A stretch of 64,000 nucleotides of DNA from IMG/VR virus record IMGVR_UViG_3300006467_000276, one strand, 5' to 3'. Source of the DNA: an uncultured virus (IMG/VR IMGVR_UViG_3300006467_000276) (Duplodnaviria; Heunggongvirae; Uroviricota; Caudoviricetes). Numbering within the stretch: the first letter of the stretch is position 1; the number at the start of each line of letters is the position of its first letter. The notes beneath the pieces are model-generated. The model worked only from the letters and a program-made list of their open reading frames with translations. It searched no databases and was not told the origin of the DNA. Positions 2,350 to 63,295 of this stretch are shown in pieces. The translations under genes were made by a program, and so were the position numbers.

Positions 2350-2352
2350 AAC

Positions 2353-8166: not shown

Positions 8167-8271
8167 GCTGCACCCCACTGAGCTAAAGGCTATCGATGTA
8201 ACATCCGTAACATCACGCAAGGTAGCAGCAGCCTACCGCAGGTACAACCCAAAACCGTAAAATTCAAATTT

Positions 8272-10040: not shown

Positions 10041-10055
10041 TACCGGTCTTTCGAC

Positions 10056-10793: not shown

Positions 10794-10802
10794 TTTCGGC
10801 CT

Positions 10803-13627: not shown

Positions 13628-13640
13628 TACTGCTAATAAC

Positions 13641-15802: not shown

Positions 15803-15805
15803 AAT

Positions 15806-17179
15806 CTACACCTTTGACCTCTGAAGCCGATGGGAAACCACATCCATCCACGGCGACGTTTCTCCATAGAATGGAATTGGCTGTCCTGATATTGTGTAGA
15901 CTACTCCAGATCTATCAAGTGCAGTTACCAGAACTAGCTGATCTCTCTGCACTCCTTTCGAAAATAAATCCCACCAGATACGATTGAATGCCTCTGTCCC
16001 ACTCGAAGGTCTCCGATAAATGAATCCTCCCCACGCAACAGGATTGTCCAAGCTCTCTTGGACTACTGAAAGATTTCCTACAGACGAATCAGCGAAACCG
16101 ATACGAACCACAGTTTCTAGCTCATCTCTCACAGTCCTGCTTCGATTGTGCTTCAGTAGTATGATTTCAGGTGAGCCTTGCGATTGATACAATATCTGCC
16201 GAAGGAGATCGACTGGATTCTTTTTCAGACGAACATTTCCGTCAACGTACAGAGTAGGGCGATTGGGAAACAATTCATGGGACATCATTTTCCAGTACCG
16301 ACTCGCTTGTTTCGGTGTGGACGCCTGCTCTGATACAGGGACTACTCGAAGTTCCCAGCCTCTAGGGACTTTCAGATTAGGATTGTCGGTGACCACCACG
16401 CACCTCACTCCTGGCACCGCTGTGTTGATTTTATCATAGCCACCAAAAGAGCAGGTATAGATTACGATGTTGCTGACAGGCGAATCATCGACAAACCGAT
16501 GATACAAAGACCAATCTTCTCCGAGCCATTCTTTGAATTTTGATAGATTAGAATCATCCCGAGAACGACGATTCGGCTTATGTGTGATTCCGGCTCGACC
16601 AGGAAGTTCCTTCACACCTACACAAGAAGCTCTGCCTCTGGTAGTTGAGTCCCGGAGATTCCGTGCTCCACGAAATCGCTTCCAAAAAGCCATGTCAACT
16701 TTCCAGTCGCCTCGAGGAAGACTACTCAAAGTGCCTTCAAAAGCCTTGAGAGCTTTTCGGGTAAATCCAGTTCGACATAGACTGGCGTGCTGGTGGTCCG
16801 ACCAAAAGTACCACCTCCGGCTCTGAATGTGGTAGTATTTGGCTCCTCGTTCTCCGCACAAATCAGCTTTCTGGAGATTCTGGAGCATAGTTTCGAGGTA
16901 TGTTCGGCAGTAGTAATCGTCATCCTCGATAATGACGATCCGGTCTCCTTTGATTCTTGGTAAAGCAACCGCCAGATTGGTGGCTAAGGTGTGCGAAGGA
17001 TCACTCCGATGCGGAGTGCGTCGAATGTAATCTTGACCTAAGACGGGTACTGTGGGGGTTTTCCCATCATCCACCACAATCCACTGGCGATCTTCCTTGC
17101 AGGTCTGCCGAGACATCAGATACTCGCAAAGCGCAAACGCTTCCGGTCGATCTCCCGTCGGTGTAATCAAAGTCAACAC
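15806..17179 (-). CDS. Two-domain glycosyltransferase (GT2-like N-terminus plus DUF616-like C-terminus)
   Basis: LITPTGDR, WIVVDDG, IIEDDDYY; then IYTCSFGGYD, SRYWK, LYVDGN, RDQL. Confidence 0.8.
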   Translation of the reverse strand: MLTLITPTGDRPEAFALCEYLMSRQTCKEDRQWIVVDDGKTPTVPVLGQDYIRRTPHRSDPSHTLATNLAVALPRIKGDRIVIIEDDDYYCRTYLETMLQNLQKADLCGERGAKYYHIQSRRWYFWSDHQHASLCRTGFTRKALKAFEGTLSSLPRGDWKVDMAFWKRFRGARNLRDSTTRGRASCVGVKELPGRAGITHKPNRRSRDDSNLSKFKEWLGEDWSLYHRFVDDSPVSNIVIYTCSFGGYDKINTAVPGVRCVVVTDNPNLKVPRGWELRVVPVSEQASTPKQASRYWKMMSHELFPNRPTLYVDGNVRLKKNPVDLLRQILYQSQGSPEIILLKHNRSRTVRDELETVVRIGFADSSVGNLSVVQESLDNPVAWGGFIYRRPSSGTEAFNRIWWDLFSKGVQRDQLVLVTALDRSGVVYTISGQPIPFYGETSPWMDVVSHRLQRSKV

Positions 17180-17183
17180 TGAA

Positions 17184-17777
17184 TCACCTCACAGCCCAAA
17201 CTCGAAGCTGCTGAAGCCCTTTAATTTCATAGCACTTTGATCGAAGCAGCTTCAGACATTCTGACGATTCCTTTCTGGCTGATTTTGTATGTCCTGGATG
17301 CTGCCAGTACTCGTCTGAATGAGGCAACGGGTAGCTTGAGGTGACTAAGAATTCCACATGCTGAAGAGCATCAGTGATCACCGCCAAAGGCGATTCTAGA
17401 TGTTCAAGAACTTCACCGAATACCACTGCATCAAATTCTCTGAAATGAGGTTGAGTTGTGCTGTATTCGGCTTTCCGGCCCATACCTTCCATCCTCCAAC
17501 GGACAAATCGAATCATCTCTGGGTTGTTGTCGAAGAACGTGACTTTGTGGCCGTACTTGAGAGCGATGTACCCATAGTCCCCGACTCCGCACCCAAAATC
17601 CATTACAGCCATCGAGTGTACAGGGAGCCTGCCAAAGGCACTCTTTGCTTGTGGATATCGTGTGTACCTCAGAAGCATTGAGTTCAAAGAAGATCGAGTC
17701 CGCTCATCGATATCTGGATGGCTTTGGCAGTAATTCTGCAGCAGCTCAGTTCGATTTTGTTTTTGTTTGGAATTCAT
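17184..17777 (-). CDS. Class I SAM-dependent methyltransferase
   Basis: VMDFGCGVG, FDAVVFGEVLEHL. Confidence 0.8.
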   Translation of the reverse strand: MNSKQKQNRTELLQNYCQSHPDIDERTRSSLNSMLLRYTRYPQAKSAFGRLPVHSMAVMDFGCGVGDYGYIALKYGHKVTFFDNNPEMIRFVRWRMEGMGRKAEYSTTQPHFREFDAVVFGEVLEHLESPLAVITDALQHVEFLVTSSYPLPHSDEYWQHPGHTKSARKESSECLKLLRSKCYEIKGLQQLRVWAVR

Positions 17778-17797
17778 ATTCGAGCCATTCTGAAGAA

Positions 17798-18376
17798 CTA
17801 CCGCACCAGATAACCGTACACCCGATTTTCGTACTCTGACCAAAGTGGATTATTCTGATATAGTTGTTTCAATTGGCCAGACGAGAACCAGCTTGAAATT
17901 CGATGTTGATACTGACGCTTTGGTTTTGTCTCGATTCCTTCAAACAACCGAGCAGCCTGCAGGGTTTGAACCAGAACGCCTTTTGCCTGATAGAATTCTA
18001 TCAAATCATCAAAAAGATTTTCGCACCGAATGAAGTAGGGAATGCGCTTTGATTCGGACACAAATTCTTTCAATACTTCATCTGGTCGAGTAAACTCGAC
18101 CATAGCAGCAACCATTTCACTCTTAGAATCAAATCGAGTCCTTTGCCATCCGAAATGATGAAACCAAGATAACACCATTGACGGCAGCCGACGAAAAGTG
18201 AGAACCAGATCATGGGCCTCCAGATCTACCACTTGGTGCGGCGGCAGGTGTTTGTCTGGGTTGGTGATTGCGTACCAGTGCACTCCTTTCGGTCGAAGAG
18301 CTTCTGTATACTGCTTCGCAGCATCTCCTCCAGTTTTACCGATATGGCCAATCACAAAATCAGGACCGATAATCAC
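17798..18376 (-). CDS. Sulfotransferase-like protein (Sulfotransfer_2-like)
   Basis: HIGKTGG, FRR...LSWF, FIRCENL. Confidence 0.6.
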   Translation of the reverse strand: MIIGPDFVIGHIGKTGGDAAKQYTEALRPKGVHWYAITNPDKHLPPHQVVDLEAHDLVLTFRRLPSMVLSWFHHFGWQRTRFDSKSEMVAAMVEFTRPDEVLKEFVSESKRIPYFIRCENLFDDLIEFYQAKGVLVQTLQAARLFEGIETKPKRQYQHRISSWFSSGQLKQLYQNNPLWSEYENRVYGYLVR

Positions 18377-23840: not shown

Positions 23841-26267
23841 CTACTCCAGCCCGAATTTCTTTGGGCGATTTGCTGCTGCAAGCAATTGAGTCTGTGTGTT
23901 GTTGATTTGCCCTAAAAGAGAATTCCGTTTGAGATCTAGGGCATTCTCTTGCTCAGACAACAAAGCATCCTGGATCTTGTCAGCAATTCCAGTGAAGGAG
24001 TACCGACCTGCGTCAAGAAACGAAGAAGCAGACGGGTTCATTCCGGCACCTTTGCCGCCTTTTCCATCTTCTCCAAGAGCAGCATCAGGTCCTCCTCCTG
24101 ATCCAAATCGACGACTGAAAGCCGACTCCATCCTCTCCATAGCCTCATCCATTTTACGGGACGCGTCTTCGGCAGCCTTTCGAAATGGATTTTTTGATTC
24201 GTCATATGCTTGAGAAAAGCCTTCGGTGAACTGCCTCATAAGGTCATCAGCGGCGCCTAACGCCAGCGCTTTCGCTGCTTCTAGAGCTGCTGTGAATCCA
24301 TCCACCAACCCGGAAAAAATGTCGCCGGAGTAGAAACCTTGTTTGATCCATTCCCACAGAGCTAAGAATCCATCCCGAATAAACCCAAAAGCAGAGTCAA
24401 ATACACCGACAGTGAATTCTGAAATGCCGCTAAATCCGTTGAACCAAACATGAACAATCTCATTGACGATGGTCTGTGCTGCACCCCACAGCAACCGCCC
24501 CCAATCAACAAAGAAAGCAACCATTGTTTCTAAGGTGCCAGCAAATCCCTTGGCAAACCCAAACAAAATCGATGGGATGTCTACAGTAAAGATTCCGCGA
24601 AACATCTGAAACCAACTCTGAAGAGCGAATCGAGCAGCGTCGAATGACCAAGCAAACACATCAGCCCACGCAGCCATTGAAGATTCGGTAAAGCTGATCA
24701 ACCCAGAAAACAGCCCAGTCACAAACCCATAAACAGACGACACTCCTCTACCAATAGATGAAACAGCACCGAGTACGCTGCCTACTATGAAAGCGCCTAC
24801 TGAAGCAAAGCCTGCTCCCAACATCTCAAACAACCCGGACGCAGCAGCACCTACCCCGACAAAACTCGCCGCCACGTATCTAGCAAAATCTTCAAATTCC
24901 GCCCGTATCAAATTAAACTGCTGCATGGCGTACGCTTCGAAGAAATCCCAAGTAGCCGCCCAGTCAGCAGTAAGGAAATTCAGAAGCCGAAGAATATCGA
25001 GTAAACCCGAAGCGATCGCTCGAAACATTCCTGTGATGCTCGGAGTGAAAACTCCTAATCCTTCCACAAACGATTCCAAAATAAGCCTCAAATGGCCCCA
25101 CAGAGCCACTAACTCTTTTGAAATATCGGCCCAGAGTGCCATCCCTTCTTGCGAAGTCCGAAGCCAGTTGACGAAGGCGCCGATAGCTGCCCCTAGAGCA
25201 ATTACTGCTGCACCGATTCCGGTACCCAAAAGCATCCCACGGGCTGTTATGCCGAAAATATTCATAGCCACCACAGCAGCCGCGACAGCGGCGCCAAACG
25301 TAGCAGTAGCTGCGGCACCTGCCAGCATCATTGGGATGTACCCCTGGGATGCCTGAATCACTGCCTGGAAACCAGTCAGCATATCACGGAGTATGCGGAC
25401 AAATTCAAGAGCAACTGGAGCTAGGCTCTGTCCAATCTCTCTCTTGAGGACAATAACAGAGTCGACAAAGTTACTCCACATCCCCAAAAGAGTTTCTGCT
25501 TGGCGGGTCATCAGATTTGCGAACCGCCCACCAGCACTGGACATCCGATTGAAAGCCTGAACGACGATGCGGCTAGAAACTCCTCCTTGAGAAACCATCT
25601 GCTGGATTTCCGACGTCGTCTTGCCTAGCATCGTGGCGAGTTCGTCGAGAAGCGGAATACCAAGGACTGCGAAGTCCCGCAGTTCTCGGCCAGTCAATCG
25701 ACCCTGGGTCTTAACCTGACCCAAGTTCAGGATAAGCCGCTCCAGCCCGACTTCACCTCGACCAATACCAGCCGCAACGTCGCCTACAGATTTTAGAATG
25801 GGAAGTAGATCGGATGCTCCAAATCCAACAGCCAAAAGCTGCTGCGCAGATTTTTCTACACCAGGCAAAGTGAAGGGAGTGCGAACAGCAAAATCAGTGA
25901 GCTGCTGCAATGTCTTCTGAGCTTTTCTTGCACTGCCAAGCATAACCTCAAAAGCGACTTGAGTCTGCTCAAATCGACCAGCTTCTGCTACGGACTCTGT
26001 CACCAGTCCTGTCGCCTTGCGAGCCGCCGTAGCCAGTAGTCCCCCAGCGACGATACTGGCTCCTCGAAAACTCTCGACATACATCCGAACCATTGCTTGG
26101 ACGTCTTGTCGAAATCGAGCCTGATCGATCCTCGGCCGAATAGTTCCAGCTTGGGAGATGCTGCGAGCCTGATCTCGCATGAACCCTCGAAGTCTGTTCA
26201 TATCTCCAGGCAGACCCGAAGAATCTCCTCGGACACGAACAAACAAACGAGCAAGCTCAATACCCAT
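23841..26267 (-). CDS. Tail tape measure protein
   Basis: LARLFVRVRGD start, FEVMLGS...FAVRTPF...LGQV...ELRDFAVLGIP tape-measure domain, Ala/Gly/aromatic periodic helices. Confidence 0.92.
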   Translation of the reverse strand: MGIELARLFVRVRGDSSGLPGDMNRLRGFMRDQARSISQAGTIRPRIDQARFRQDVQAMVRMYVESFRGASIVAGGLLATAARKATGLVTESVAEAGRFEQTQVAFEVMLGSARKAQKTLQQLTDFAVRTPFTLPGVEKSAQQLLAVGFGASDLLPILKSVGDVAAGIGRGEVGLERLILNLGQVKTQGRLTGRELRDFAVLGIPLLDELATMLGKTTSEIQQMVSQGGVSSRIVVQAFNRMSSAGGRFANLMTRQAETLLGMWSNFVDSVIVLKREIGQSLAPVALEFVRILRDMLTGFQAVIQASQGYIPMMLAGAAATATFGAAVAAAVVAMNIFGITARGMLLGTGIGAAVIALGAAIGAFVNWLRTSQEGMALWADISKELVALWGHLRLILESFVEGLGVFTPSITGMFRAIASGLLDILRLLNFLTADWAATWDFFEAYAMQQFNLIRAEFEDFARYVAASFVGVGAAASGLFEMLGAGFASVGAFIVGSVLGAVSSIGRGVSSVYGFVTGLFSGLISFTESSMAAWADVFAWSFDAARFALQSWFQMFRGIFTVDIPSILFGFAKGFAGTLETMVAFFVDWGRLLWGAAQTIVNEIVHVWFNGFSGISEFTVGVFDSAFGFIRDGFLALWEWIKQGFYSGDIFSGLVDGFTAALEAAKALALGAADDLMRQFTEGFSQAYDESKNPFRKAAEDASRKMDEAMERMESAFSRRFGSGGGPDAALGEDGKGGKGAGMNPSASSFLDAGRYSFTGIADKIQDALLSEQENALDLKRNSLLGQINNTQTQLLAAANRPKKFGLE

Positions 26268-27443: not shown

Positions 27444-27920
27444 TTACGATGGATCCGGCAGCGTTCGGCTTGGTTGATCTGTCTGCCCTGGTCGATAGAA
27501 GATTCCATCAGCACCCCAAGCAGCAGTCCACCCAATGACTTCTTCTGTGTCGACATTCACTGTCAACTGGAAATCATTGCACAGTGCCCGAGGGAAATCC
27601 CAGTACAAACTGACGTTCGGGGTGACCTCAAGATCTTCTTTCAACCAAAGGGTCACGCGAAGCGTATCACCTGGATTGAAAAGTTGGTACACCTCGTCGG
27701 TCGTATCGTATTTTCCTTCCGTATCGAACGTCGCATCTCTTCGACCCGACGCACGATTGGTGTATCCTGCTGAATCTGAATCACCCCACTCACTACTGGT
27801 AGCCAAGGTCGGATTCACCGCCCATTGAGTGATTCGAGCAACCAGACTTTCTGTGCTGTCTTCGAGATTTTCAAGAGAAACCTTACCGGTTCGTCCGGTA
27901 AGAGTATCGAGGCTGGACAT
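27444..27920 (-). CDS. Major tail tube protein
   Basis: Size, acidic beta-rich sequence, position before the chaperones, followed by a terminator. Confidence 0.7.
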   Translation of the reverse strand: MSSLDTLTGRTGKVSLENLEDSTESLVARITQWAVNPTLATSSEWGDSDSAGYTNRASGRRDATFDTEGKYDTTDEVYQLFNPGDTLRVTLWLKEDLEVTPNVSLYWDFPRALCNDFQLTVNVDTEEVIGWTAAWGADGIFYRPGQTDQPSRTLPDPS

Positions 27921-27964
27921 GTCATTTCTCCGTTAAACGGAAGTGAGTGGATCAGATTCTTTGA

Positions 27965-28639
27965 TTAAGAAGACTGCGATGAACTGCTTGACGACGATGA
28001 ACTACTCAATGACGAAGAACTGCTTGACTGGGATGAGCTGCTCGATGACGAAGAACTGCTCGAAGAGCTACTGCTTTCGTCATCATCGTGTCGACCGATC
28101 AACGCAATTGTGTACACCACCGCGCCGCCGTTTGCAGTCAGCTTTAATCGGTGGCTGGATGCGTCAACGACATCAAAAGCCGCCGCCGCAGGTTGGGCCT
28201 TGTGCAGCACACCGCCGCCCCGCAGAGCACCGCCTGTTGCGGCTGTGTGGGTACCAATCGGCGTCCACCCATTAGTCGAGTCAGGTTCAATTTCAAGCTG
28301 ACCATCCGCCGTCACCGCATTATCGTTCTGGATCTGAATTGCTGTGATTTCTTCGACAGTCAGTGCCTGTCCGGTAATATCATTACCATCACCCATTCCA
28401 AAATCGTATCCGGAAAAATCGTACAGATCGATGACAATGGACGCTCCCGACGGAATCGTCCCAGAAAACTGCCACGCGCGATTCGATTGGTTAGAACCGA
28501 TTCCATTCGTCATCGAAGATTTCTTGGTAGCCTTTACCTGGCCCGAAACCGAAACACTGGAATTTACGTCCGACGCATTAACCACTGTCGCGGTAATCTG
28601 CGCCAAGGCTGTCGGCGTTGTCAGTGATCGCGTTCCCAT
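27965..28639 (-). CDS. Putative virion protein with C-terminal poly-serine tail
   Basis: Beta-rich domain then DDDE and ~35 residues of nearly pure Ser ending QSS-stop. Confidence 0.75.
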   Translation of the reverse strand: MGTRSLTTPTALAQITATVVNASDVNSSVSVSGQVKATKKSSMTNGIGSNQSNRAWQFSGTIPSGASIVIDLYDFSGYDFGMGDGNDITGQALTVEEITAIQIQNDNAVTADGQLEIEPDSTNGWTPIGTHTAATGGALRGGGVLHKAQPAAAAFDVVDASSHRLKLTANGGAVVYTIALIGRHDDDESSSSSSSSSSSSSSSQSSSSSSLSSSSSSSSSSQSS

Positions 28640-28649
28640 CGGTCAGTCC

Positions 28650-29138
28650 TTACTGAGCTACCGGTACATCGACCCGAAACAGATATCGCACCAACCAATA
28701 GTGCTCACTATCCCCAAGCCGCATTCCGTAATCTGTTAGGTATTGAGTGATCAGATGTTGACCAGTATCTAACGAAAGAGCTGAAGGCGTTTCGGTAGGA
28801 TGGCCTCCGAACACTTTCATGATTTCTTCAGCTAAAGCACCAGCAACATCCTTAGCCGCCGTTGAGTCCACCGTTTTGGCATAGACTCGAAATTCCCAGA
28901 TGATGTCTCGAACTTCTCGGCGAGCTGACAGAGTGCCAGACAGCCTGTTGACAACAATCGGCTCTTCTTGATTGAAAATGCAGTACGGAAACGGCTGCTC
29001 AGGAGCGGCTTCTTGATCATTGAGAACAAGAAAATCATCTGAATCATCACCACCCCAGTAAGCAGTGAATAGATCGTCGAGATCTGCTGAATCCCAAGCA
29101 GTCGCCACAGCCTCATGAACATCTCGAGACCCAATCAT
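28650..29138 (-). CDS. Tail terminator/completion protein
   Basis: APEQPFPYCIF, WEFRVYA; canonical position before the tail tube. Confidence 0.6.
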   Translation of the reverse strand: MIGSRDVHEAVATAWDSADLDDLFTAYWGGDDSDDFLVLNDQEAAPEQPFPYCIFNQEEPIVVNRLSGTLSARREVRDIIWEFRVYAKTVDSTAAKDVAGALAEEIMKVFGGHPTETPSALSLDTGQHLITQYLTDYGMRLGDSEHYWLVRYLFRVDVPVAQ

Positions 29139-29608
29139 TTAATCGGACCTGAAAGGATTTGTCGAATTCTATCCTGCTGCTCAAAGAGGGTTCTGGTCAG
29201 AAATCGACGATCCAATTTTGTTTCGAGTACCAATCCGTACCACACAGGTGACCCAATGAACCCGTCCACCACACCCGGTGATGTCTTGACGGTGTCAGTG
29301 AAGATAGACTTCATCAGAAGAGTTGTATCGGCTCTTGGGTACTCTCCTGGCTTACTTCGTTCGATGACAACAACTCGACCGGTCCGAGCACTGATGCCTC
29401 GGGTAACTGGTTTGCTGATATTCAGCACCACCTTAGTCTTAACGAACATCACCGCGATGCGGATTCGTTGCCACAAGGTGAGTTGGATCTCGTTCAGTCT
29501 TTCTTTGATGAACCACTCATCTCGCCGAAGACGTGCTTGGGCAGCAGACACTCGACGGACGCGAGCTCTTTCTACTGCCTGAGCACGTTGTATCGACTTG
29601 ACCGGCAT
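29135..29608 (-). CDS. HK97 gp10-like tail completion protein
   Basis: Basic; SKPGEYPRADTTLLMKSI...YGLVLE...RRFL. Confidence 0.7.
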   Translation of the reverse strand: MPVKSIQRAQAVERARVRRVSAAQARLRRDEWFIKERLNEIQLTLWQRIRIAVMFVKTKVVLNISKPVTRGISARTGRVVVIERSKPGEYPRADTTLLMKSIFTDTVKTSPGVVDGFIGSPVWYGLVLETKLDRRFLTRTLFEQQDRIRQILSGPIK

Positions 29609-30222
29609 CAGTTCTCACTTGACGAAGATGACATTCGTGCAACCCAAGAATCAAAATCTTTTTCAAGTTTGGGTTGCGTATTGAAAACTCGACTGCCTGG
29701 ATTGAGGAGGTAATCTCCTGGGAGATCGTCGATGTCTTCCAGACTCAAACTCGACGGCCCTTCGACGAGCTTACCTTCGTCCGCTTCGACGATATGGTAC
29801 AGCTCTCGGCAAAGAGTTTTCATTGAGTTTGCGTCCAGTTTCCCTTCACTCTTTGGAACAGGTCGAAGCTCGGAGTCCGTTCCTCCTTGTCGATTTTCCT
29901 TCAACCACCGCTTGATCTCGGCAAGGATTTCATCTTCGCCTTCGAGACCATCAGTGATCTCGTAAGTCTTTTTCAGAGGAAAGACCGTGATCACCATTCC
30001 CGGAATACGAGGCAGAGAGCCCAAAGCAAGTACCCGGTCTTTTGGTACACCGATGATCTTGCCTGTTGTTGCATCTCGAACCGGCTTCGAGCCTGAAATT
30101 GAACTCCGCAACCGACATCCAGGAATCGTCTGAATGAGAAGATCTGAATTTTGCGGATGATCAGCCTCAACTGAAAACTTTGTCAGTGTCGCCATTTCAG
30201 CGATAGCTTCTTGAGTAGCCAT
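29608..30222 (-). CDS. Hypothetical protein downstream of the major capsid gene
   Basis: 204-aa ORF with RBS GAGG; ends MSSSSSEN. Confidence 0.7.
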   Translation of the reverse strand: MATQEAIAEMATLTKFSVEADHPQNSDLLIQTIPGCRLRSSISGSKPVRDATTGKIIGVPKDRVLALGSLPRIPGMVITVFPLKKTYEITDGLEGEDEILAEIKRWLKENRQGGTDSELRPVPKSEGKLDANSMKTLCRELYHIVEADEGKLVEGPSSLSLEDIDDLPGDYLLNPGSRVFNTQPKLEKDFDSWVARMSSSSSEN

Positions 30223-48963: not shown

Positions 48964-50640
48964 CTAATCAAATGCCGTACTCCAACTGTCACCGAGGTCA
49001 CTCAACGACGAAGCTTCCTCACTTTCATCTGAATCGCAAATTTCTCGAAGTTCGTCAGGCATTGCATCCATTTCTTCTTCCGTCAAATCGTCTGCAGTGC
49101 CGTCGTCTACAATGATATCGTCATCTGGTGATAACTGAGATTGGTAACCTTCGAGCAATTCGAGAGCCGCTGGCAAGGCGATAGCGACTGCTGTTCCGAC
49201 ATCAGCATGCCCGGTTTGGTCACTGGTGGCGACCAGCTTCTGTCCACTGGTTTTTTCTTCAATATCAAACTTCCCAAAATCATTCTTGAGAGTTTCTTCT
49301 TCATCATCATAGCAGTGGAATCTGCCGTCACTGATGACCTGCACAAACGCCGTTGCCATCTTGATCAGATTGGCTGGAGATGCGAAGGACATTTTTCGCA
49401 TCGGTACGCCTTTTCGACGAAGCCGCTGAGCCATCAACGCTGCCTGGTGCGGATCGAAAAATAGACCCATCAATCGATAAGTTTTGTGGATGTCTCGGCA
49501 CTCTCTCTCGACATCAATCAGATCCACTTCCCCGGTCTTAGCCTTTGGTTTCCATCTCTTCCAATAGGCGGTGATGATCTGCTGCTTGGCATAGTGCACC
49601 CCGAGCACTGCGAATCCAGCATGGTCATGGCTGACTCCTAAGTCGAGTCCTGCAATATAAGTCATCTCAGAATCCGGCAAAGCCGGGCCTTCTAGAGAAA
49701 AACACGATTCGATGACCTCTTGGGCCACTGCATCGCCTTTCCCAGATACCCACACACCCCACCAGAGCCGAAGATACCTACTTCTTGGGTTTCTCTTCTT
49801 CGCATCCTCGATTGTAGATTTATCGTGCCATGGAGCAGGGCGAGCCCAGACAAACACTCGCCAGACGTCAGACTCCATGGCATTCTTTCGCCAAACCTCA
49901 GCCTTAGAGCCTGTGTAACCTGCATTGGTTGCGATGATGACCACACCCTGGGCCACACCGTCGGCATTGTCCATCAGGTTTTCAGCAAACTCCCAGCGAT
50001 TCACGTGGCTCAATTCGTTGATCACCAGAAGGTCAGGAGTACCTCCGTGAGCACCGGCAATGTCGGATGACATGATGTGCAGGTTTGCCATCGGAGATCC
50101 ATCAGCCATTTCTTCCGCACTTCGAGCCGACCACTGCACAACCGTAACTCTTTCGTTGAGCCATTTGTTGTGGTGCAAAAGATGGTTGATACGCGCTTTG
50201 ACAATGGCTGCTTGTTCTTTGTTAGCCGCTCCAATCTGAATATAAAAGGGCCTGATAGGAAATGCCAACAACCAAAGCACAACGACAGCCAAGTCAGAGT
50301 CTTTTCCGGCTTTCTTGGTCCTTTCGACCCAGAATCTTCTCCATTCCGGTTTATCGCCTTTCCTCAGAGCCTCAACACTCGGGGCCAATTCTTCGAAAAA
50401 ACTCCTCTGGTAATCCGCCATGCACCTGTCAAAGATTCGAGGTCCGCCTTGAGAATCAATAGTCAAGCCCCGGACAAAGCACAAGAAATCGTCAGCACTC
50501 CGCTTCTGATACGCCAATTGGATTGCGCGCTCTTTTGCCACGAGATCTCTGTTGTACTGCATCCGTTTCCCTGTGCCTCGAATATCACCTAATCCTGGAT
50601 TCGGAAGATCGACTCCCAGCACATCTTCACGATCAGTCAT
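48964..50640 (-). CDS. Terminase large subunit
   Basis: Q motif DYQR, Walker A-like KKAGKD, AANKEQA, Walker B-like LLVINE, ATNAG, nuclease AGLDLG..HD, FDP, HAD. Confidence 0.85.
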   Translation of the reverse strand: MTDREDVLGVDLPNPGLGDIRGTGKRMQYNRDLVAKERAIQLAYQKRSADDFLCFVRGLTIDSQGGPRIFDRCMADYQRSFFEELAPSVEALRKGDKPEWRRFWVERTKKAGKDSDLAVVVLWLLAFPIRPFYIQIGAANKEQAAIVKARINHLLHHNKWLNERVTVVQWSARSAEEMADGSPMANLHIMSSDIAGAHGGTPDLLVINELSHVNRWEFAENLMDNADGVAQGVVIIATNAGYTGSKAEVWRKNAMESDVWRVFVWARPAPWHDKSTIEDAKKRNPRSRYLRLWWGVWVSGKGDAVAQEVIESCFSLEGPALPDSEMTYIAGLDLGVSHDHAGFAVLGVHYAKQQIITAYWKRWKPKAKTGEVDLIDVERECRDIHKTYRLMGLFFDPHQAALMAQRLRRKGVPMRKMSFASPANLIKMATAFVQVISDGRFHCYDDEEETLKNDFGKFDIEEKTSGQKLVATSDQTGHADVGTAVAIALPAALELLEGYQSQLSPDDDIIVDDGTADDLTEEEMDAMPDELREICDSDESEEASSLSDLGDSWSTAFD

Positions 50641-51575
50641 TCTTTGCACCCTTGAATCGATTGCTGCTTCAGGAATTCTGAAATGTGATCCTCTACACGC
50701 CGTCCGCACCGATCACTGATACCCATCTTCTCTAACCAATCCACACACGCGACCGTCTTGCGAGCTTCTCCAGGCCGTATGCCTGTTCCAATAGTCTGTG
50801 CTTGGTACATCTCAGCTAGAGCAGAAATCGACCAACCGATTTCCGTCCCTACATCATACCAATCTTCAGTTAATTCCGAATCACTGTGATACACTTGAAA
50901 ATTCGTGCTCTCAGCCTTCCGCATAATTCTGACAACATCGTCAACATGAACGAAATCTCGGACCTGACTGCCGTCGCCGGTCACCAAGATACCTGAGCAC
51001 CCATCTCGTAAAGTTTTCTCCCAGCACCCCATCACCGTAGAATATGGACCGTCCTCAATTTGTCGTGGTCCGTACACGTTAAACAATCGAAACACAGCAG
51101 TCCAAACCCGTCCTCGCTGGTGGTACCAACGGCACAAGTGCTCTGCCAGGTACTTGGTACCTGCATAGGGGTTGAGCTGCCAATCAGCTTGCAATGCACT
51201 GGTTGATGCAAAGACTACCTTAGATCGCACAGCAGCAGCAAAATCCAATACATTCTTGGTTCCATCTACATTCACTTCCCAGGTTCTGTCTGGATCTTTG
51301 ATGGACGGCTGGATCCTGCTCACTGCTGCTAAATGGTAGATCCAATCGATCGAACCCGATAGAACGTGTTCAGTGAATTCTTGGATTCTCTTCTTCTGTG
51401 TAACGTCAAGATCTACCAAATGGAAATTTGGATGGACCCCTTGGATGTGCGAAACCTTCTTGATACTTCCGCTACTGAAATCGTCCCATCCAATCACAGT
51501 ATGTCCATCACGAAGCAAGGAGTCAACTAAGTGACTCCCGATAAATCCCGCCGCCCCTGTCACCAAAACTCTCAT
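50637..51575 (-). CDS. NAD-dependent nucleotide-sugar epimerase/dehydratase (extended SDR)
   Basis: VTGAAGFIGSH, HLAA, YAGTK, RLFNVYGP, GDGSQVRDFVHV. Confidence 0.92.
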   Translation of the reverse strand: MRVLVTGAAGFIGSHLVDSLLRDGHTVIGWDDFSSGSIKKVSHIQGVHPNFHLVDLDVTQKKRIQEFTEHVLSGSIDWIYHLAAVSRIQPSIKDPDRTWEVNVDGTKNVLDFAAAVRSKVVFASTSALQADWQLNPYAGTKYLAEHLCRWYHQRGRVWTAVFRLFNVYGPRQIEDGPYSTVMGCWEKTLRDGCSGILVTGDGSQVRDFVHVDDVVRIMRKAESTNFQVYHSDSELTEDWYDVGTEIGWSISALAEMYQAQTIGTGIRPGEARKTVACVDWLEKMGISDRCGRRVEDHISEFLKQQSIQGCKE

Positions 51576-52459
51576 TCGCTGCTTTCTTCTTCGCCAAAAT
51601 CCCATTCACCCGGAGATGCTTCATCTACACTGTTTTTCGGCTTTTTTGATTTCTTCGGCTTCTCCGCCTTACTATCGACTTCCTTCGCTTTCTTCTTGCC
51701 TTGTCTCTGTCGTTCGGTGTGAGCTGCCAAATACTGCTGACTACCCACCTTCACTCCATTCTTCAAATCATCGAGGACGCTCATCGCAGCCATCAACTGA
51801 TCCACTGGAGCTTCAAGATGGTAGCCTTCTACTGACCTTTTGAGCTCTCCGTTATCTTCGACCCCGACACCCGTACGGAGCATCGTCAGCTTTCCAGCTC
51901 CACTACTCAGAGGAATCGAACCTTCGATCTTAGCAGCTTCAACAAAACATTCTTTTGCCAGACGGAGGTGCGAAGCATCTCCAGCCTGTCCAGTTTTCTT
52001 CATTGTAGACTGGACTTCTACTCCAGATCCGTCGCACCGCCGGCACTTCTCGACTTCACCGGGCTTATCTTCATCCGTTCCCAATCCATCACACACAGAG
52101 CAAACCTTCTCAACAACAGTGTGCTCCGTCTTGATATCTCTAGATGCTTCGTACGAATTCAAAGCCAACAGAGCGATATTTTCGATCTGGTGGATTCGAT
52201 TCATCCTCATATCTTCGAGAGATTCTTCAGTCCTCTCTCGCCACCGGGCGCGAATGTCTTTGATAGCCGTGCTGATATGAGGCTGTTTTACTTGAAATGC
52301 CGCTGACAATTGATTCTGATTAGTCACACCTCGAAGTAATTTCGCTTCGAGGCGATTCAAGAATTCAATGTAAGGGATTTTGACACCAGCGACTTCGATG
52401 GATTTTCGGCTATACTCATCGTCGCTACGATCCGGAGGTAGTTGATTTTCTGGACTCAT
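51572..52459 (-). CDS. Putative terminase small subunit with HTH and DnaJ-type Zn finger
   Basis: HTH NQNQLSAAFQVKQPHISTAIKDIRARW; CSVCDGLG/CRRCDGSG; lies two genes upstream of TerL. Confidence 0.55.
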   Translation of the reverse strand: MSPENQLPPDRSDDEYSRKSIEVAGVKIPYIEFLNRLEAKLLRGVTNQNQLSAAFQVKQPHISTAIKDIRARWRERTEESLEDMRMNRIHQIENIALLALNSYEASRDIKTEHTVVEKVCSVCDGLGTDEDKPGEVEKCRRCDGSGVEVQSTMKKTGQAGDASHLRLAKECFVEAAKIEGSIPLSSGAGKLTMLRTGVGVEDNGELKRSVEGYHLEAPVDQLMAAMSVLDDLKNGVKVGSQQYLAAHTERQRQGKKKAKEVDSKAEKPKKSKKPKNSVDEASPGEWDFGEEESSE

Positions 52460-53044: not shown

Positions 53045-53920
53045 TCAAACTACCATGCCGCAATCATCGCACACTACTACTTGCTCGCATCCACCTAAAA
53101 ACAATCCTGTTGTTCTTGGATGCGCACAAACCTCAACCGAAGATTGAATCCGAACTGCTCCTTCTTGGACTCGCCTTTTCACTGACTCCACGTTCGACTC
53201 TGAGACATCAATCGTCACACACCGACGATTCAACGCCTTGGCAACCGTTGCCGTTGTCCCTGATCCCGCGAACGGATCAAGCACTCGATCTCCTTCATCT
53301 GTATAGGCTCGAATCAACCTCTCCAGATACACCTCAGGCAGCTGATTTGGATGATGCGTTCTTCTTTCTTTGCTGGTACCCTGAACTCTCCCCCAGTACG
53401 GACCATCACTCGGCACACCCCAAACAGTCCCTGGTACTCGTTTTCCGCCATTTGCTGTTTCGTGGATCCTCTTGTCTCTGTAAGTTGAGGCTCTGTCCGA
53501 CGTGACCAAAACCTCCTCAGGATTCCACTTGTGCTCACTGTGCTTCGCGTAAATCAAACAATGACAACGAGCATCGATCCAGTTCGATCTCCCGCACTGC
53601 CCAAAACGATAATGCCAGTTCACCCATGCAATACGTCGCATTCCTAGTGCTCGAGCTGCGATGAGATACAGCTCCGCAACATCATCCGGACCGTGCAATG
53701 CCAATACACCGTCACATGCATCCCAGCACACCTCAATCCACTCAGCCGTGAATTCTTCGTAATCATTCCGATTGTCATCGTATCCATCATATCCGTGCCC
53801 GATATTGAACGGTGGATCAGCAAATACGAAATCGAACTTCCCGATCATAGGGACTATTTCTCGGCAATCACCTAATAAGACTTTCACGTCTGAATTCATT
53901 CCCTGCCTTTCGGTACCCAC
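53045..53920 (-). CDS. DNA N6-adenine/N4-cytosine methyltransferase (beta class)
   Basis: ADPPF (motif IV) precedes VLDPFAGSGTT (motif I); HPNQLP. Confidence 0.9.
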   Translation of the reverse strand: MGTERQGMNSDVKVLLGDCREIVPMIGKFDFVFADPPFNIGHGYDGYDDNRNDYEEFTAEWIEVCWDACDGVLALHGPDDVAELYLIAARALGMRRIAWVNWHYRFGQCGRSNWIDARCHCLIYAKHSEHKWNPEEVLVTSDRASTYRDKRIHETANGGKRVPGTVWGVPSDGPYWGRVQGTSKERRTHHPNQLPEVYLERLIRAYTDEGDRVLDPFAGSGTTATVAKALNRRCVTIDVSESNVESVKRRVQEGAVRIQSSVEVCAHPRTTGLFLGGCEQVVVCDDCGMVV

Positions 53921-57413: not shown

Positions 57414-58937
57414 TTCTACGTCTACATCAGTTCTAATCCACTGAATTTAGTCGGAATCCCAACTTTCAGCACCTAATTTTTCACTGTCCCAAACAAATCC
57501 AAACACCTGGATTTACTGAACTCTCTTGTTTTCGGTACCATTTTAGCACCTGCGCCCTGCGGCCGACCCGGTACATTTGGTACCATTTTGGTAAGAATTC
57601 CCAGAAAGAATAAATGATCCGCACCAGATCCACCTGTTTATTTTTAATCTGCATCTATTCCATTAGAAGCCTGGGATTCCTCTTTTACAGAATACGGTGG
57701 GATTCGGCGGTGCTTCCGGTGCCGGTTGCGGTTATCTCTTCTTCTACTGGAGAGTCCTAGGCATGTGGTTGCGGTTCTGGTTACGATTACGGTGTTGATT
57801 ATTCTACTACCAGGCTTACCGTTTCCGGTACCGTTAGCTGCCCTGGTACACTGCTATTGGTTTGAGTTTTCTCTACCTTAGGCAGGGACTCTAGTAGGTT
57901 AGAATTTGGATACGGTTACTGGTGACCTGGTGGTTTGTACGGTACTGGCTGTTTCCCTGAAACTCAAAATCAAATCTGAATCCGGTTCGCGGGATTCTGG
58001 TACTGGTGTTGGTTCTGGGACAGGCGAGTACGGTAACGAAAGCGATTCGGTAATGGTTTTGGTGGCGATTAAGCGGATTCAGTAATGGTTTTGGCGGCGA
58101 TTAGCGATTTGAAGCGATTTGATGAGAAGTGGTATCAAAAGCGGCGCCAAACCGCACCACCGCTTTTTCTAGAACCAAGCACACCTACACTACTGCACAA
58201 CCATGCACCGTTGCAAAATCAAACACGCATCTGTGCACTGCCGCAAAATGCAACGCTGCGAAATGCAACATGCAGCAGGACGCTACAGCAAAACGCTACG
58301 CACAGTTTGCGTTGTGTGGTGCGTTTGCAGTGCAGTACGTGCTTTGTGCTGTAAAGTGCTGCGCGAGCAGCACGTGGTGCACTGTGGTGCTTATGCGTGC
58401 GGCTAGCGCTAACGGCTTGGATTGTGTGCAGTGGCTAGCGCTAACTTTGCGCTAACGGCTAGCGCTAGCCACTGTGTGCGTGTTGTGTTGCTGCGCTGCG
58501 CTTGCTCATCAGCAACTCTCATACACTCATTAGCGCTAGCCATTAACGTTAAGCACTAAGCACACACAGCACTACGCACAGCAAGCACAAACGCAGTGCA
58601 GCACTGCGCAGCTATAAGCACAGCAGCACGCTATAATACACGCAATTGCAACGCATACTATGCACGTTGCTGCAACTGCTTATGCTGCTGTAGTGCGTGC
58701 TGCTACGCAAAACATGTACTTGCGTGCACCAACTAAGTGTACCACAGCAAAAACATGCTTTGCATGTTGCTGCAACTGCTTGTGTAGCAGTAACTTACAG
58801 CAAATTGCAAAAAAGCAGCACAAAAAAGCTTGCAATTGCTTGTAGCACTGCGTACAATACACGCAGCAAGCACGCAGCACAGTACGCAGCACTGTACAGC
58901 GTAACACAGCAACCTTCCTAAACAGGAGCACAGCACA
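57414..58937. other. Divergent non-coding control region with repeats and extreme composition
   Basis: No credible ORF; transcription switches strand here; direct repeats, palindromes and a GA/TC-free tract. Confidence 0.75.
58806..58858 (+). promoter_or_regulatory. Sigma-70-like early promoter, copy 1
   Basis: TTGCAA (58830)-17 nt-TACAAT (58853) with upstream A-tracts. Confidence 0.7.
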
Positions 58938-59735
58938 ATGAGCACACGCAGCACAATCACCGAAGAAACCGTCGCCCACAAACAAGCCTGCAAACAGCAG
59001 CTTGAGGTTAATCTCAAAGACTACAACGTCCGCGTAGGCGACAAGATGTACTACAGCAAAAACAGCCGAGAGCTGGTAGTCATCAAAGTCACCAAGCGGC
59101 AGTTCAAATGCCGATACGCAGACGACAACGAACACACGAAAGACACTGTACTCATCTTCGAACTCAGCTCTACTTGGTACGGCCCGACCCTTAGGGGTTC
59201 TAAGTGCTCTTGCACTCGCAGATGGAATGAAAAATCGCGATGGCTCAGCGGCGAATACTGTACTCGAAACAAAGCCTATCTGACAGTCCAATCAATCCGG
59301 AAGGCATCGAGGAGAGCGCGTAAACGAAAAAAACACGAAGAACATCTCGCCAAAATCGCAAAAAGAGAAGCCGAAGAACTGGCTGAACTCAAAGCCGCCA
59401 TCGCTGCGGATGGCGGTGAACTTCGTATTCTGTGCAAAGAACAAACCGATGAGTCCTTGTTTGCTCTCGTAGAGCTGCCGCCGGCTTTGACTGAACAGAG
59501 AATCGAATCCCACTCCCGCAGCGGTGCATGGCGACGAGTATTGGTACACGTACGCCGAGAAAAATGCACTTCATACGGCCTACGCAGCGATGATGGTAGC
59601 GAATACCAATACCGGTGCTCATACCACATGGTAACAGAGAACAACTGCTCCAGCACAAGCAGCAGTGAATTCGACGTTGATGATCTGGATTCTGGGTTGT
59701 GGGCAGCTCTCCGAAACTGCTGGGCACATTGGTAA
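58938..59735 (+). CDS. Hypothetical early protein
   Basis: RBS AGGAG; 265 aa. Confidence 0.75.
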   Translation: MSTRSTITEETVAHKQACKQQLEVNLKDYNVRVGDKMYYSKNSRELVVIKVTKRQFKCRYADDNEHTKDTVLIFELSSTWYGPTLRGSKCSCTRRWNEKSRWLSGEYCTRNKAYLTVQSIRKASRRARKRKKHEEHLAKIAKREAEELAELKAAIAADGGELRILCKEQTDESLFALVELPPALTEQRIESHSRSGAWRRVLVHVRREKCTSYGLRSDDGSEYQYRCSYHMVTENNCSSTSSSEFDVDDLDSGLWAALRNCWAHW

Positions 59736-59864
59736 GGCTCATTGTGCTGGGACGGGAGCTGCACGTCTGTTCGTGCTGTGCAGCGTGCAGCTCCCCGTCC
59801 TTTTACGCATCGCGTCAACAGCAGCACACAGCAACGCACACGTCTTCGCAAAGGAATAAACACG

Positions 59865-60404
59865 ATGACCCAATCAACAACCGCCCAAGCACTCGCCAAC
59901 GAATTGAATGAAGCCTTCACCGAAGCATCAATCTACAGCGCACACGGCTGGAGTTTCGGCAATGCCAACGCCATCGCATCCGGAAATACCGTCACCGTCA
60001 CCGAAGAAGACGGGATTTGGATGATGCAAATTGCCTGCGAGGATGGCGTTCCTGTAATCTCAAAACAACTCAGAGACGACGACGAAGCTGCTTACAACGA
60101 AGCCGCCGACGCTGCAGAATGGTACGAAGATTGGTATACTGAGATGCTCGATCTCGTCCTGGGTTGCTTAGGAGATCCTGTGCAACCTGCGTCCTGTCTC
60201 ACAGCAACAATCCACGATAACTTCAGCGAGGAAGCAGCGTTGCTGTTCGTTGAAGTGCTAAGTGACTACTCGCACCAGATAGCCGCCACAGAATCTGGTG
60301 TTTGCGGTACCAAAACTGAGTCTGCTATACACTGCACGGATCAGATTTTGGTACCAGAAACGGTACCGTGTGCAATTGGAGCGGATGCTGAGGATTGGCT
60401 GTAA
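59865..60404 (+). CDS. Acidic hypothetical early protein
   Basis: Start moved to MTQSTT after AAGGA; Asp/Glu-rich. Confidence 0.7.
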   Translation: MTQSTTAQALANELNEAFTEASIYSAHGWSFGNANAIASGNTVTVTEEDGIWMMQIACEDGVPVISKQLRDDDEAAYNEAADAAEWYEDWYTEMLDLVLGCLGDPVQPASCLTATIHDNFSEEAALLFVEVLSDYSHQIAATESGVCGTKTESAIHCTDQILVPETVPCAIGADAEDWL

Positions 60405-60413
60405 GCTGCATCG

Positions 60414-60545
60414 CAAAAAAAAAACGATAAAGTAGCAGCACAAAAACGCTTGCAATTGCTTGCAACGCTGCTACACTGCACGCAACGCAGCAGCAAACAC
60501 GCTGCAAACAGCAACACAACCTAAACAGAAGCACAGAAAACAATG
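60414..60545 (+). promoter_or_regulatory. Repeated promoter/leader element, copy 2
   Basis: A-tracts, TTGCAA (60450)-16 nt-TACACT (60472) with extended -10 TG; near-identical to 62132-62232. Confidence 0.7.
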
Positions 60546-60758: not shown

Positions 60759-60789
60759 GCAGCAGTCTGTTCAACAGGAGCACAGCACA

Positions 60790-61350
60790 ATGAGCACGAT
60801 CTCATTCAAAGAGGCGCAAGCCAAGCAACTGACCAACTATTATCCAGAAAAACTCGAAAAACTCTTCGACCGACCACTCACTCCTCTCGAGATTTTGACT
60901 CGAAAAGACGGTGGATGGCGACGAATTCCTGCAGGCGACAGACTGTGCATGGTTGTCCACTCAGAAGTACTCCCTGATGGAGTACTCCGCCTCTTCGCCG
61001 CCGCCTGCGCAGAACGTGCGATGCTCCAAGAGAGAGCAGCAGGCAGAGAACCCGACCAGCGAAGCTGGGCGGCAGTCTCTGCTGCGAGAGCTTTTGCTGC
61101 TGGTGAGATTACTGAAGAAGAGTTGAAGCAGAAGTCAGAGGCGGCGAAAACTGCTTGGAATGCAGAAGATGCAGCAGCAGAGTGGAGCCTGTCCTCTTCG
61201 GCGGCGTTTTCGGCATGGTCGGCAGCGTGGCACTCAGAATCAATGGTGCCGGCGACCCAATCCGCATGGGCAGCAATATCATCATCGGCAACGATGGCCC
61301 GAGCCGGCCATGCCGTCGCTGTCCTGGCTGCCCTTCTGCGTAGTGAATAA
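60790..61350 (+). CDS. Ala-rich hypothetical phage protein (Imm5-like pattern)
   Basis: LRLFAAACAER...DQRSWAAVSAARAFAAGEITEEEL; RBS AGGAG. Confidence 0.65.
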   Translation: MSTISFKEAQAKQLTNYYPEKLEKLFDRPLTPLEILTRKDGGWRRIPAGDRLCMVVHSEVLPDGVLRLFAAACAERAMLQERAAGREPDQRSWAAVSAARAFAAGEITEEELKQKSEAAKTAWNAEDAAAEWSLSSSAAFSAWSAAWHSESMVPATQSAWAAISSSATMARAGHAVAVLAALLRSE

Positions 61351-61453
61351 GTCCGCAGTCCACAGCAGCAAACACGCTGCAGCACACATCCGCATTTCTT
61401 ACCGCAATCACAATGCACTCTAGTCTCTAGTCTCCGAAAAGGAACCAACACCG

Positions 61454-61732: not shown

Positions 61733-61804
61733 GCCGCGGCCTATTCTGCCAGGTCCGGACCAGCCTATTCTGCACCGATTTCGTAGAGACAAGGAACAGA
61801 AATC

Positions 61805-62143
61805 ATGCCGCAATCAACTGCCCAAATCCGCCAAGCCGAGATCAACCGCATATGCGGCCTTGACTCCAACAACGAACACTACCAGCGCGGCATTCGCACT
61901 GGAAACGAATGCGTCTGCATCACCATCTCACTGCACGATGTGTGGTCAGGTGAAGGTAAGAACGGTGCGTCAATTCAGAGCTACGAGAGAATCGGATACC
62001 ACACCGGCAGTATCGATTTTCTATCAGGTGTACTATCCACCGACTGCGAAGTGTTTCGATTCGTCAAGACGGCTGATGGTGTCGAAAAAATCAGAATCAA
62101 AACCAATCCCTACACACAGGCAGTGCAGCAGAAAAAACGATAA
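61805..62143 (+). CDS. Hypothetical protein
   Basis: RBS AAGGA; its stop lies inside the promoter repeat. Confidence 0.65.
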   Translation: MPQSTAQIRQAEINRICGLDSNNEHYQRGIRTGNECVCITISLHDVWSGEGKNGASIQSYERIGYHTGSIDFLSGVLSTDCEVFRFVKTADGVEKIRIKTNPYTQAVQQKKR

Positions 62144-62232
62144 AGTAGCAGCACAAAAACGCTTGCAAGCGTTTGCAACGCTGCTACACTGCACGCCGCA
62201 CAGCAGCAAACACGCTGCACACAGCAACAACC
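62132..62232 (+). promoter_or_regulatory. Repeated promoter/leader element, copy 3
   Basis: TTGCAA (62163)-16 nt-TACACT (62185); near-identical to copy 2. Confidence 0.7.
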
Positions 62233-62266
62233 TCAGCCCGGTGGCCCGGGTGCAACGGAGGCAGAA

Positions 62267-62494: not shown

Positions 62495-62644
62495 CACAGC
62501 ACCCGTCGCCGCCCGCGTGGCTGCCGGTCTGCCCCGAGCCGGATCACAGCCACGCGGCACGTCGCGGCGTAATCGTTCCGCCCTGGCGTTGGCCAGCGGC
62601 GGCGGGTCGGGCACTTTCTTCCACTCCTCAAGGAGACCTGGTCG

Positions 62645-63295
62645 ATGAAAACACTCGCATGGCACAATGACCCACAGCTCAAAGCCGACACAATGACTCA
62701 ACTGCGAGCGCATCGCGATGCCGATGAGATCATCCAAGGCACGTATTTCGATGGTCACAAAGGCTGCCATCTCGGCTGCCTGACACACCTGGATTTAGCT
62801 CCACACCAGGCTATTGCAGACAAATTCGGCTTCCCTTTACGAATCGCCTACTGGCTCGAAGCGATTTTCGAGGGGTTGCCAGCAGATCAGTGCGCGTCGT
62901 GGGTGATCGATTCAACAGATGCCATCCCCATCGGTGCTGATCTGTCGCTCGCACATCACGAGTTCGCTGCCTGGCTGCTGGATCCTGCGACCGGCATCTT
63001 GGCGTCCCACAAACTGACAGATCGAGCCGTCGCTGGTGTGCGTGATTTGCATCTTCGAGCGTTGCGAAGCGAACCTGCCACTGACGACGAATGGTCGGCG
63101 GCGGATTCGGCGGCGGCATCGGCGGGGCGGCATCGGCGGGGTGGGCGGCGGCGGCATCGGCGGCGGCATCGGCGGCGGCATCGGCGGCGAGGTCGGCGGC
63201 GAGGTCGGCGGAATCGGCGGCGGAATCGGCGGCGAGGTCGGCGGAATCGGCGGCGGATTCGGCGGCGGCAACGCAGCAGCAACGCAGCAACCTAA
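62645..63295 (+). CDS. Hypothetical phage protein whose Ala/Ser-repeat tail appears frameshifted
   Basis: RBS AGGAG; AHRDADEIIQGTY...GCHLGC N-terminus; the SAAx repeats continue in another frame after ~63127. Confidence 0.6.
   Translation: MKTLAWHNDPQLKADTMTQLRAHRDADEIIQGTYFDGHKGCHLGCLTHLDLAPHQAIADKFGFPLRIAYWLEAIFEGLPADQCASWVIDSTDAIPIGADLSLAHHEFAAWLLDPATGILASHKLTDRAVAGVRDLHLRALRSEPATDDEWSAADSAAASAGRHRRGGRRRHRRRHRRRHRRRGRRRGRRNRRRNRRRGRRNRRRIRRRQRSSNAAT
63094..63270 (+). repeat. Degenerate 9-12 bp GC-rich tandem repeat TCGGCG(GCG)NNN
   Basis: Directly visible; encodes SAA[A/R/E/D]. Confidence 0.85.

Follow-up and report, generated by a model that had tools for sequence, protein, structure and literature searches.

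Why should a stretch of phage DNA lack the very dinucleotide that is commonest around it? This question is raised by a 389-nucleotide (nt) tract, hereafter the void, at positions 58528-58916 of the 64,000-nt sequence of an uncultured phage of the Caudoviricetes (IMG/VR record IMGVR_UViG_3300006467_000276), the whole of which was analysed and is called the window. A preliminary description, made by eye, reported that the void is free of GA, TC and GG, holds only four CC, and lies where about 48 GA/TC would be expected. We scanned the dinucleotides of the 64-kb window, with expectations taken from local base composition and with the 10 strand-symmetric dinucleotides as classes, and the computed scan bears these counts out. 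The longest GA/TC-free gap in the window measures 389 nt between the TCs at 58527 and 58916, and within the void there are 0 GA/TC against 46.6 expected (P ~5×10−21) and 4 GG/CC, all of them CC, against 45.1 expected. G occurs only as GC (59) or GT (19), and CA is found 60 times.

GA/TC is the most frequent of the 10 classes in the window (0.158), and its void has a log10 P of −24, whereas the voids of every other class reach −4 or weaker. Chance is thus excluded as the origin of the void by the scan statistics, no other class having a comparable void. The runner-up gaps measure 102 (60426-60528), 94 (62139-62233), 86 (58420-58506) and 86 (58279-58365) nt. The first two are promoter repeats in which the depletion had already been said to recur. 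Outside these repeats and the control zone around the void, the largest gap in the window is 60 nt at a mean spacing of 6.3, so the view that similar voids do not arise at random elsewhere holds. There is also no additional GA/TC void longer than 60 nt on the ~92-kb map obtained by joining the window to a second record (see below). The tract is 100% identical in two further records, G001 and a 92,396-nt metagenome contig, and is therefore not an assembly artefact.

The rule is the same on both strands. No G stands before a purine and, the four CC apart, no C stands after a pyrimidine. The counts of GA 0/TC 0 and GG 0/CC 4 are those expected of a rule that acts at the level of the duplex. Among the four minus-strand GG, three are GGT, and the remaining one, at the extreme left edge, is GGC. 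The weaker leftward depletion that had been placed from about 58280 is present, but it begins at 58172: positions 58172-58527 hold 11 GA/TC against 44 expected and 15 GG/CC against 52 expected, and the whole 754-nt zone holds 13 GA/TC against 93 expected. TCGA and GATC, which occur 583 and 380 times in the window, are both absent from 58172-58937. Across the window TCGA is over-represented (z = +7.5), and GATC is the most under-represented tetranucleotide relative to Markov expectation (380 versus 570, z = −18) while still being frequent in absolute terms.

What is this DNA likely to do? The depleted zone, of about 0.75 kb, appears from its sequence elements to be an early control region that stretches between a terminator and the ribosome site in front of the first rightward gene. 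Its left edge coincides with a GC-rich, terminator-like hairpin at 58141-58170, preceded by an A-run and followed by a T-run; a minus-strand hit at 58155-58141 followed by TTTT makes it a putative bidirectional terminator. The left half of the zone (58172-58527) carries three of the four TAGCGCTA palindromes of the window (58404, 58436 and 58460) and the fourth, at 58531, stands just within the void. These palindromes are set in larger inverted repeats and are candidate operators. Inside the void, a candidate upstream promoter on the plus strand, TATAAT followed by ACACGCA with a weak −35 element (58632-58637), would share its −10 and start region with the promoter P1 (TACAATACACGCA). A repeat search finds two 39-nt copies at 58654-58692 and 58754-58792, 82% identical and each with a palindrome GTTGCNGCAAC; the near-repeat earlier placed at 58661 and 58761 is thus real, but longer than the 21 bp given for it. 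P1 itself, matched at 9 of 12 positions, lies on the plus strand at 58830-58858 and consists of TTGCAA, a spacer of 17 nt and TACAAT behind an A-rich stretch. It is followed by an AGGAG ribosome site and the first rightward gene (plus strand, 58924-59735 with the site; ATG at 58938, 265 amino acids, no family match).

The P1 module, from the A-rich upstream part to the CA-rich leader, recurs on the plus strand as the second and third voids. The second (60427-60528, 102 nt, 11.0 GA/TC expected) contains P2, with TTGCAA at 60450, 16 nt and TACACT, and its leader up to the ribosome site, and the third (62140-62233, 94 nt, 10.3 expected) contains P3, with TTGCAA at 62163, the same spacing and −10 element, and a leader. 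The pattern TTGCAA-N16/17-TACA(A/C)T of P1-P3 has three matches against 0.27 expected by chance. From their form, these sigma70-type promoters are probably early and read by host RNA polymerase. All three voids stop at or just short of the ribosome site, beyond which GA/TC is normal. Other intergenic regions of the window have the usual GA/TC density (0.07-0.23), as do four gaps within the rightward operon (60759-60789, 61351-61453, 61733-61804 and 62495-62644; 0.10-0.15). Because these regions are ordinary, the rule is confined to the promoter modules together with the zone that precedes P1 and is not a property of noncoding DNA in general. The early genes that follow (58938-60404) are also normal, with 111 GA against 106.6 expected and 84 TC against 75.4 expected, which tells against the suggestion that first-injected DNA is being kept clear of host restriction.

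Is the absence of GA/TC maintained, or is it a by-product of the way the tract was built? Among 7 ungapped paralogous pairs within the voids, none of the 37 differences creates GA or TC. A random substitution would do so in 33% of cases (P ~3×10−7 for 0 of 37) and would create one of GA, TC, GG or CC in 53% of cases. Some of the short pairs may be vocabulary matches and not true paralogues; the four longest pairs alone give 25 differences and, at the same per-substitution probability, ~4×10−5. The divergence among copies thus points to selection against GA/TC.

This result bears on the best-surviving rival explanation, in which the tract is a positive vocabulary, that is, a dense set of TTGC/GCAA and GCAGCAC sites for a regulator or RNA polymerase that grew by local duplication and lacks GA/TC incidentally. 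It stays a rival because words such as GCAGCAC are strongly enriched: with the strands pooled, GCAGCAC (0.12 expected) and AGCGCTA (0.01 expected) each occur 8 times, GCA/TGC words cover 42% of the tract, and direct and inverted repeats are numerous. The TRF program reports three short, weak arrays of period 12-17 that cover 112 of the 389 nt. Yet 13 of the 16 dinucleotides are used, many of them outside any GCA/CA word (AA 39, TA 28, TT 17, CG 17, AT 15), the share of distinct 6-mers is 0.70, and TRF finds no array of period 2 or 3 in the tract. The spacers between sites would be expected to drift, and an absolute absence under divergence is left unexplained. We therefore regard the vocabulary reading as unlikely. 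The same observations uphold the statement in the preliminary description that the tract is not a simple repeat, and they tell against its possible origin as a decayed GCA/CA microsatellite.

Hypermutation, by a deaminase acting at YC (Y, pyrimidine; R, purine) or by ultraviolet light, is rejected as well. Destruction of YC on the two strands would account for the missing set. It would also raise AA, TT, AG and CT and lower G+C, and neither is seen: in the tract AA is 39 against 41.5 expected and TT 17 against 15.2 expected, and the tract keeps a G+C of 47.6% (window, 49.6%). Purine and pyrimidine alternate at 70% of steps in the tract and at 47% of those in the window, which argues against hypermutation because C-to-T and G-to-A changes cannot alter the purine/pyrimidine pattern.

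A possible agent of selection is encoded by the phage itself. The window is joined to a second IMG/VR record, G007, and it is in the remaining 28 kb contributed by that record, and nowhere in the window, that genes for 7-deazaguanine DNA modification are found. A 357-amino-acid DpdA homologue (L064:6044-7117) matches phrog_887, 'queuine tRNA-ribosyltransferase' (4×10−42), and shares 31% identity (1×10−27) and the stretches LDSGAFS and WYSxDSxSW with the DpdA of Escherichia phage CAjan. It matches tgt/DpdA genes in 184 of 50,697 phage records, the best being that of Edwardsiella phage ZHS, and has no sequence match in PDB. The Pfam TGT family (PF01702) has no match in the window, G001, four relatives or G007; this negative is misleading, since DpdA was then detected by PHROGs and tblastn. 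Directly adjoining DpdA is FolE (PF01227, 3.7×10−67; NF006825 above the NCBIfam cut-off), likewise of the preQ0 pathway is the QueE-type radical-SAM enzyme that the cluster also holds (phrog_2076, 3.5×10−50; TIGR04322, 1.2×10−24; the QueE models of NCBIfam score below their cut-offs), a glycosyltransferase and a PP-loop ATPase. Since DpdA, FolE and QueE are encoded, the phage DNA is predicted to carry a 7-deazaguanine derivative. According to two reports (PMC7544227, PMC10484667), phage DpdA enzymes swap guanine in DNA for a 7-deazaguanine base, with GA, on either strand, as the published target. In these accounts CAjan DpdA targets GA and GGC, sites with GC, GT or GGT can still be cut, and the modification is lost when dpdA is deleted, while Pseudomonas phage iggy modifies GA only, at 97% of GA sites. 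In the present phage 32% of all G are in GA and 21% in GG genome-wide; were GA the motif here, that 32% would be targets, and the three voids would hold none.

These results suggest an explanation that we favour only tentatively: the phage's own DpdA has its motif kept out of the control zone, so that host RNA polymerase and regulators meet canonical guanines. DpdA, with FolE and QueE, would place a 7-deazaguanine derivative at the G of GA (or GR) in the phage DNA. With no G ahead of a purine on either strand of the control region, the enzyme would exchange none there, and the packaged DNA would offer ordinary guanines, with N7 in the major groove, to the host polymerase and regulators right after entry. 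Later genes could use the phage's own sigma factor. The reading supposes modified DNA, a GA (or GR) motif and a modification that would be harmful to promoters. The features that fit it are the equal treatment of the two strands, the confinement of the rule to promoter modules, its sharp stop where elements read in RNA begin, and the use of TTGCAA in place of TTGACA at all three promoters, as befits a rule under which G does not precede a purine. Base modification by the phage itself was among the causes already proposed. The enzymes and the published GA target now speak for it, but other phages with DpdA have no such islands.

The last point is one of several that weigh against this explanation. 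The DpdA cluster lies outside the window, in G007, taken as a second record of this phage, and both the modification and its GA motif are here predictions. QueC and QueD, which preQ0 itself requires, are not clearly found; there is a PP-loop ATPase with a PAPS_reduct N-terminus, and a trace of PTPS with an E-value of 0.28. A motif of GA alone would not account for the loss of GG/CC (4 versus 45). The transcribed leaders are also void, and promoter recognition alone does not need unmodified leaders. We scanned 33 DpdA-bearing genomes and contigs for complex voids with at least 40 expected hits. Only 3 of the 33 have one, and the other two (G027 and G025) avoid different dinucleotides; CAjan, ZHS and 28 other DpdA-bearing contigs have no comparable void. 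In CAjan the maximal GA/TC gap is 81 nt, within the range of its other dinucleotide classes, and its intergenic DNA is just mildly GA/TC-poor (402 versus 484 expected). ZHS has the closest cultured DpdA, and the relatives G004 and G005 carry DpdA homologues of 35-41% identity, again with no such void. Voids in 3 of 33 sequences with DpdA versus 0 of 12 without it do not differ significantly, and several of the 12 are partial contigs.

A wider form of the explanation would make such islands general in phages with sequence-specific hypermodification, covering the control DNA that the host reads, with the missing dinucleotide giving the specificity of the enzyme. DpdA would here act at GA and GG and replace about a third to half of all G, and the voids of G027 and G025 would be the same phenomenon with other specificities. 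We consider this generalization possible but doubtful.

Two rival explanations place the rule elsewhere, and we judge both improbable, somewhat more so than the vocabulary. The first is a rule at the RNA level, by which a long untranslated leader evades Rho by lacking YC dimers and loses Shine-Dalgarno-like words by lacking GA and GG. The primary binding clefts of Rho each take a 5'-YC dimer (PMC6144790). The sense strand of the void is C-rich (C 107, G 78) and yet has only 4 YC against about 50 expected; YC is back 21-25 nt before the ATG, at about the RNA that the ribosome covers, and the coding DNA directly downstream of the zone is normal. This account needs two separate reasons for one symmetric pattern, and zero YC is seen on the antisense strand, which is G-rich and a poor substrate for Rho. 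The operon has further untranslated gaps, of 72-150 nt (61351-61453, 61733-61804 and 62495-62644), with normal GA/TC and GG/CC. Promoter DNA too follows the rule. A promoter to transcribe the left 350 nt of the zone was not found. Predicted RNA folding of the void on both strands and of the left half is no better than that of dinucleotide shuffles (z = −0.5, −1.3 and −1.4), and Rfam gave only two sub-threshold, miRNA-like hits. If this account were nevertheless true, the tract would be an unusually clean natural YC-free leader.

The second is a process of the host or the environment that acts on duplex 5'-YC/GR, such as a TC-specific DNA deaminase, a nuclease or defence system with a short motif, or damage hot spots. 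A process of this kind fits a strand-symmetric rule at the dinucleotide level that is maintained while paralogues diverge. It is not obvious what protection would come from sparing 0.8% of a genome where no class is otherwise commoner than GA/TC, and the adjoining early genes show no synonymous avoidance. Its mutational form is the hypermutation already excluded by composition and by the share of alternating steps.

Avoidance of a protospacer-adjacent motif, Z-DNA and triplex formation were dropped, as exempting less than 1% of the genome would not protect it and there is no avoidance of AA or AG steps. The window's own DNA methyltransferase (53045-53920; beta-class N6/N4, nearest to M.MboIIA, CcrM, RsrI and DpnA) is rejected as the cause, because a target of 4-6 bases would need no GA-free tract. 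A comparison of palindrome avoidance with and without GA was uninformative both here and in the CAjan control.

The two other complex voids of the survey differ from the present one in the dinucleotide avoided. In G027, which bears DpdA and FolE, positions 79589-80359 (loci L230/L231) make up 770 nt without GG or CC, where 62 would be expected; the void spans two small leftward open reading frames (ORFs), and the printed portions of their products contain no Gly, Pro or Trp. In G025, also with DpdA and FolE, positions 24009-25422 (locus L220) comprise 1.4 kb without GC and 450 nt without AC/GT. Every G there stands before a purine, the reverse of the window's rule, with a vocabulary of GATC, GGAT and TTATCC, and the region is divergent and adjoins terminase-like genes. 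Simpler cases were set aside: plain tandem repeats account for a GA/TC void in G015 and for the GC voids of G042 and G048, and coding repeats of acidic type for two voids in G004 and G005. G048 (27750-29650) and G042 (1624-4169) contain hexamer arrays (GAGACC/AAGACC) interrupted by repeated cassettes that resemble ribosome sites, a few kb from DpdA. Edwardsiella phage vB_EpM_ZHS (OM621816; L292/L293), which is cultured, has the same replication and modification module, with DpdA, FolE, QueC, QueE, QueD, DUF932, a RecA-like protein, a clamp and a clamp loader, and might serve as a laboratory stand-in.

Counterparts of the tract itself were also sought. The longest GA/TC void in 26 terminase-neighbourhood loci is 65 nt, five near-complete relatives have none longer than 84 nt, and seventeen further contigs have no GA/TC void. 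A search of JGI metagenomes with the promoter pattern gave 7 hits, of which 3 belong to the same phage (99.5-100%) and 4 are unrelated chance matches without BLAST similarity, and no diverged copy of the tract is among them. The first rightward and the last leftward gene have no match in phage records or IMG/VR.

Several repeats lie close to the control zone or within the rightward operon. Between the last leftward gene and the terminator, 57655-58130 is GGT-rich, with direct repeats of 28-32 nt, no long ORF and normal GA/TC; it could represent iterons, an origin or a small repetitive gene. A 25-nt block from ribosome site to start, AACAGGAGCACAGCACAATGAGCAC, is identical at 58921-58945 and 60773-60797, before two different genes, and has near copies at 60520 and 63291. 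A GGCGGC-rich repeat with a 12-nt period (63081-63270) lies inside the ORF at 62645-63295 and is followed by a further copy of the standard leader and ribosome-site words and then by an ATG at 63317.

The arrangement of genes places the control zone at a singular point of the genome. Genes on the minus strand extend from 57654 down to 1, and rightward from 58938 there are small genes that match no family. The leftward genes include those for a DnaB-like helicase, a primase, an SNF2 helicase, a sigma-70-family factor, sugar and methyltransferase enzymes, tape measure, capsid, portal and large terminase. G007 (29,159 nt) matches the last 300 nt of the window exactly and adds 28,349 nt, giving a joined map of 92,349 nt, and its far end matches a 15-nt tandem repeat at window positions 1-112. 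From these overlaps the two records appear to be one genome, in agreement with CheckV completeness values of 68% and 32%. The 92,396-nt metagenome contig, close in size to the joined map, carries the three promoter modules at 99.5-100% identity. The 15-nt repeat, of about 7.5 copies, whose sequence also closes the far end of G007, is probably an assembly break point of the ~92-kb genome or the join of a circular map. On the joined map the rightward block measures only about 6.3 kb (58938 to ~65260), and everything outside it reads leftward; thus 57655-58937 is the sole divergence point.

The sigma-70-family factor is encoded on the minus strand at 7657-8220 (Sigma70_r2, 2×10−9). Since the phage has such a factor, its later genes need not depend on host sigma70. 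The terminase of the window has no match among the 50,697 phage records and has several hundred metagenomic relatives of up to 58% identity. Genes for sugar-nucleotide enzymes, methyltransferases and glycosyltransferases are plentiful in the window (9465-17843 and 50637-51605) and in L064 (448-3392), with matches to cytidylyltransferase, FkbM, Methyltransf_24, GT2, GT1 and epimerase/dehydratase families; their products might decorate the virion, the host surface or the DNA.

If the control zone is indeed kept free of the DpdA motif, it would be, to our knowledge, the first known case in which a phage's own base modification visibly shapes its regulatory DNA. It would mean that the reading of promoters or operators may not tolerate 7-deazaguanine in the major groove. 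Modification motifs could then be read from genome sequence alone, which would be useful for uncultured phages and for the choice of restriction or Cas enzymes. The three promoter modules make a compact, testable system.

Among known systems, the early regions of T7, with promoters A1-A3, and of T5 have strong early promoters clustered at one end. The present modules resemble these in being several sigma70-type promoters, A-rich upstream, before small early genes; unlike them, they are repeated with their leaders within an operon, and all exclude G before a purine. The first-step-transfer DNA of T5, which is not known to contain EcoRI sites, is likewise a short, early-acting part of a genome that lacks a sequence common elsewhere. 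Here, by contrast, a whole dinucleotide and not a 6-mer is avoided, and only in noncoding control DNA that stops at the first ribosome site. With Rho utilisation sites the likeness is that the set depleted per strand (TC and CC) is the dinucleotide bound by the primary site of Rho (PMC6144790). The void is avoidance and not a rut site, and its symmetry and the normal untranslated gaps nearby do not fit. The closest likeness is to the DpdA system of CAjan and iggy (Queuovirinae), in which DpdA also stands beside FolE and QueE and the published GA target is the very dinucleotide absent here. The present phage is unrelated to these, has a genome of ~92 kb, and differs from CAjan in having a motif-free island at all; we found no mention of such an island in a DpdA phage in the portions of the literature covered by a limited full-text search. 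Within the limits of that search, 7-deazaguanine systems and site avoidance are each already known, and a putative motif-free control island in a predicted modifying phage would be the new part.

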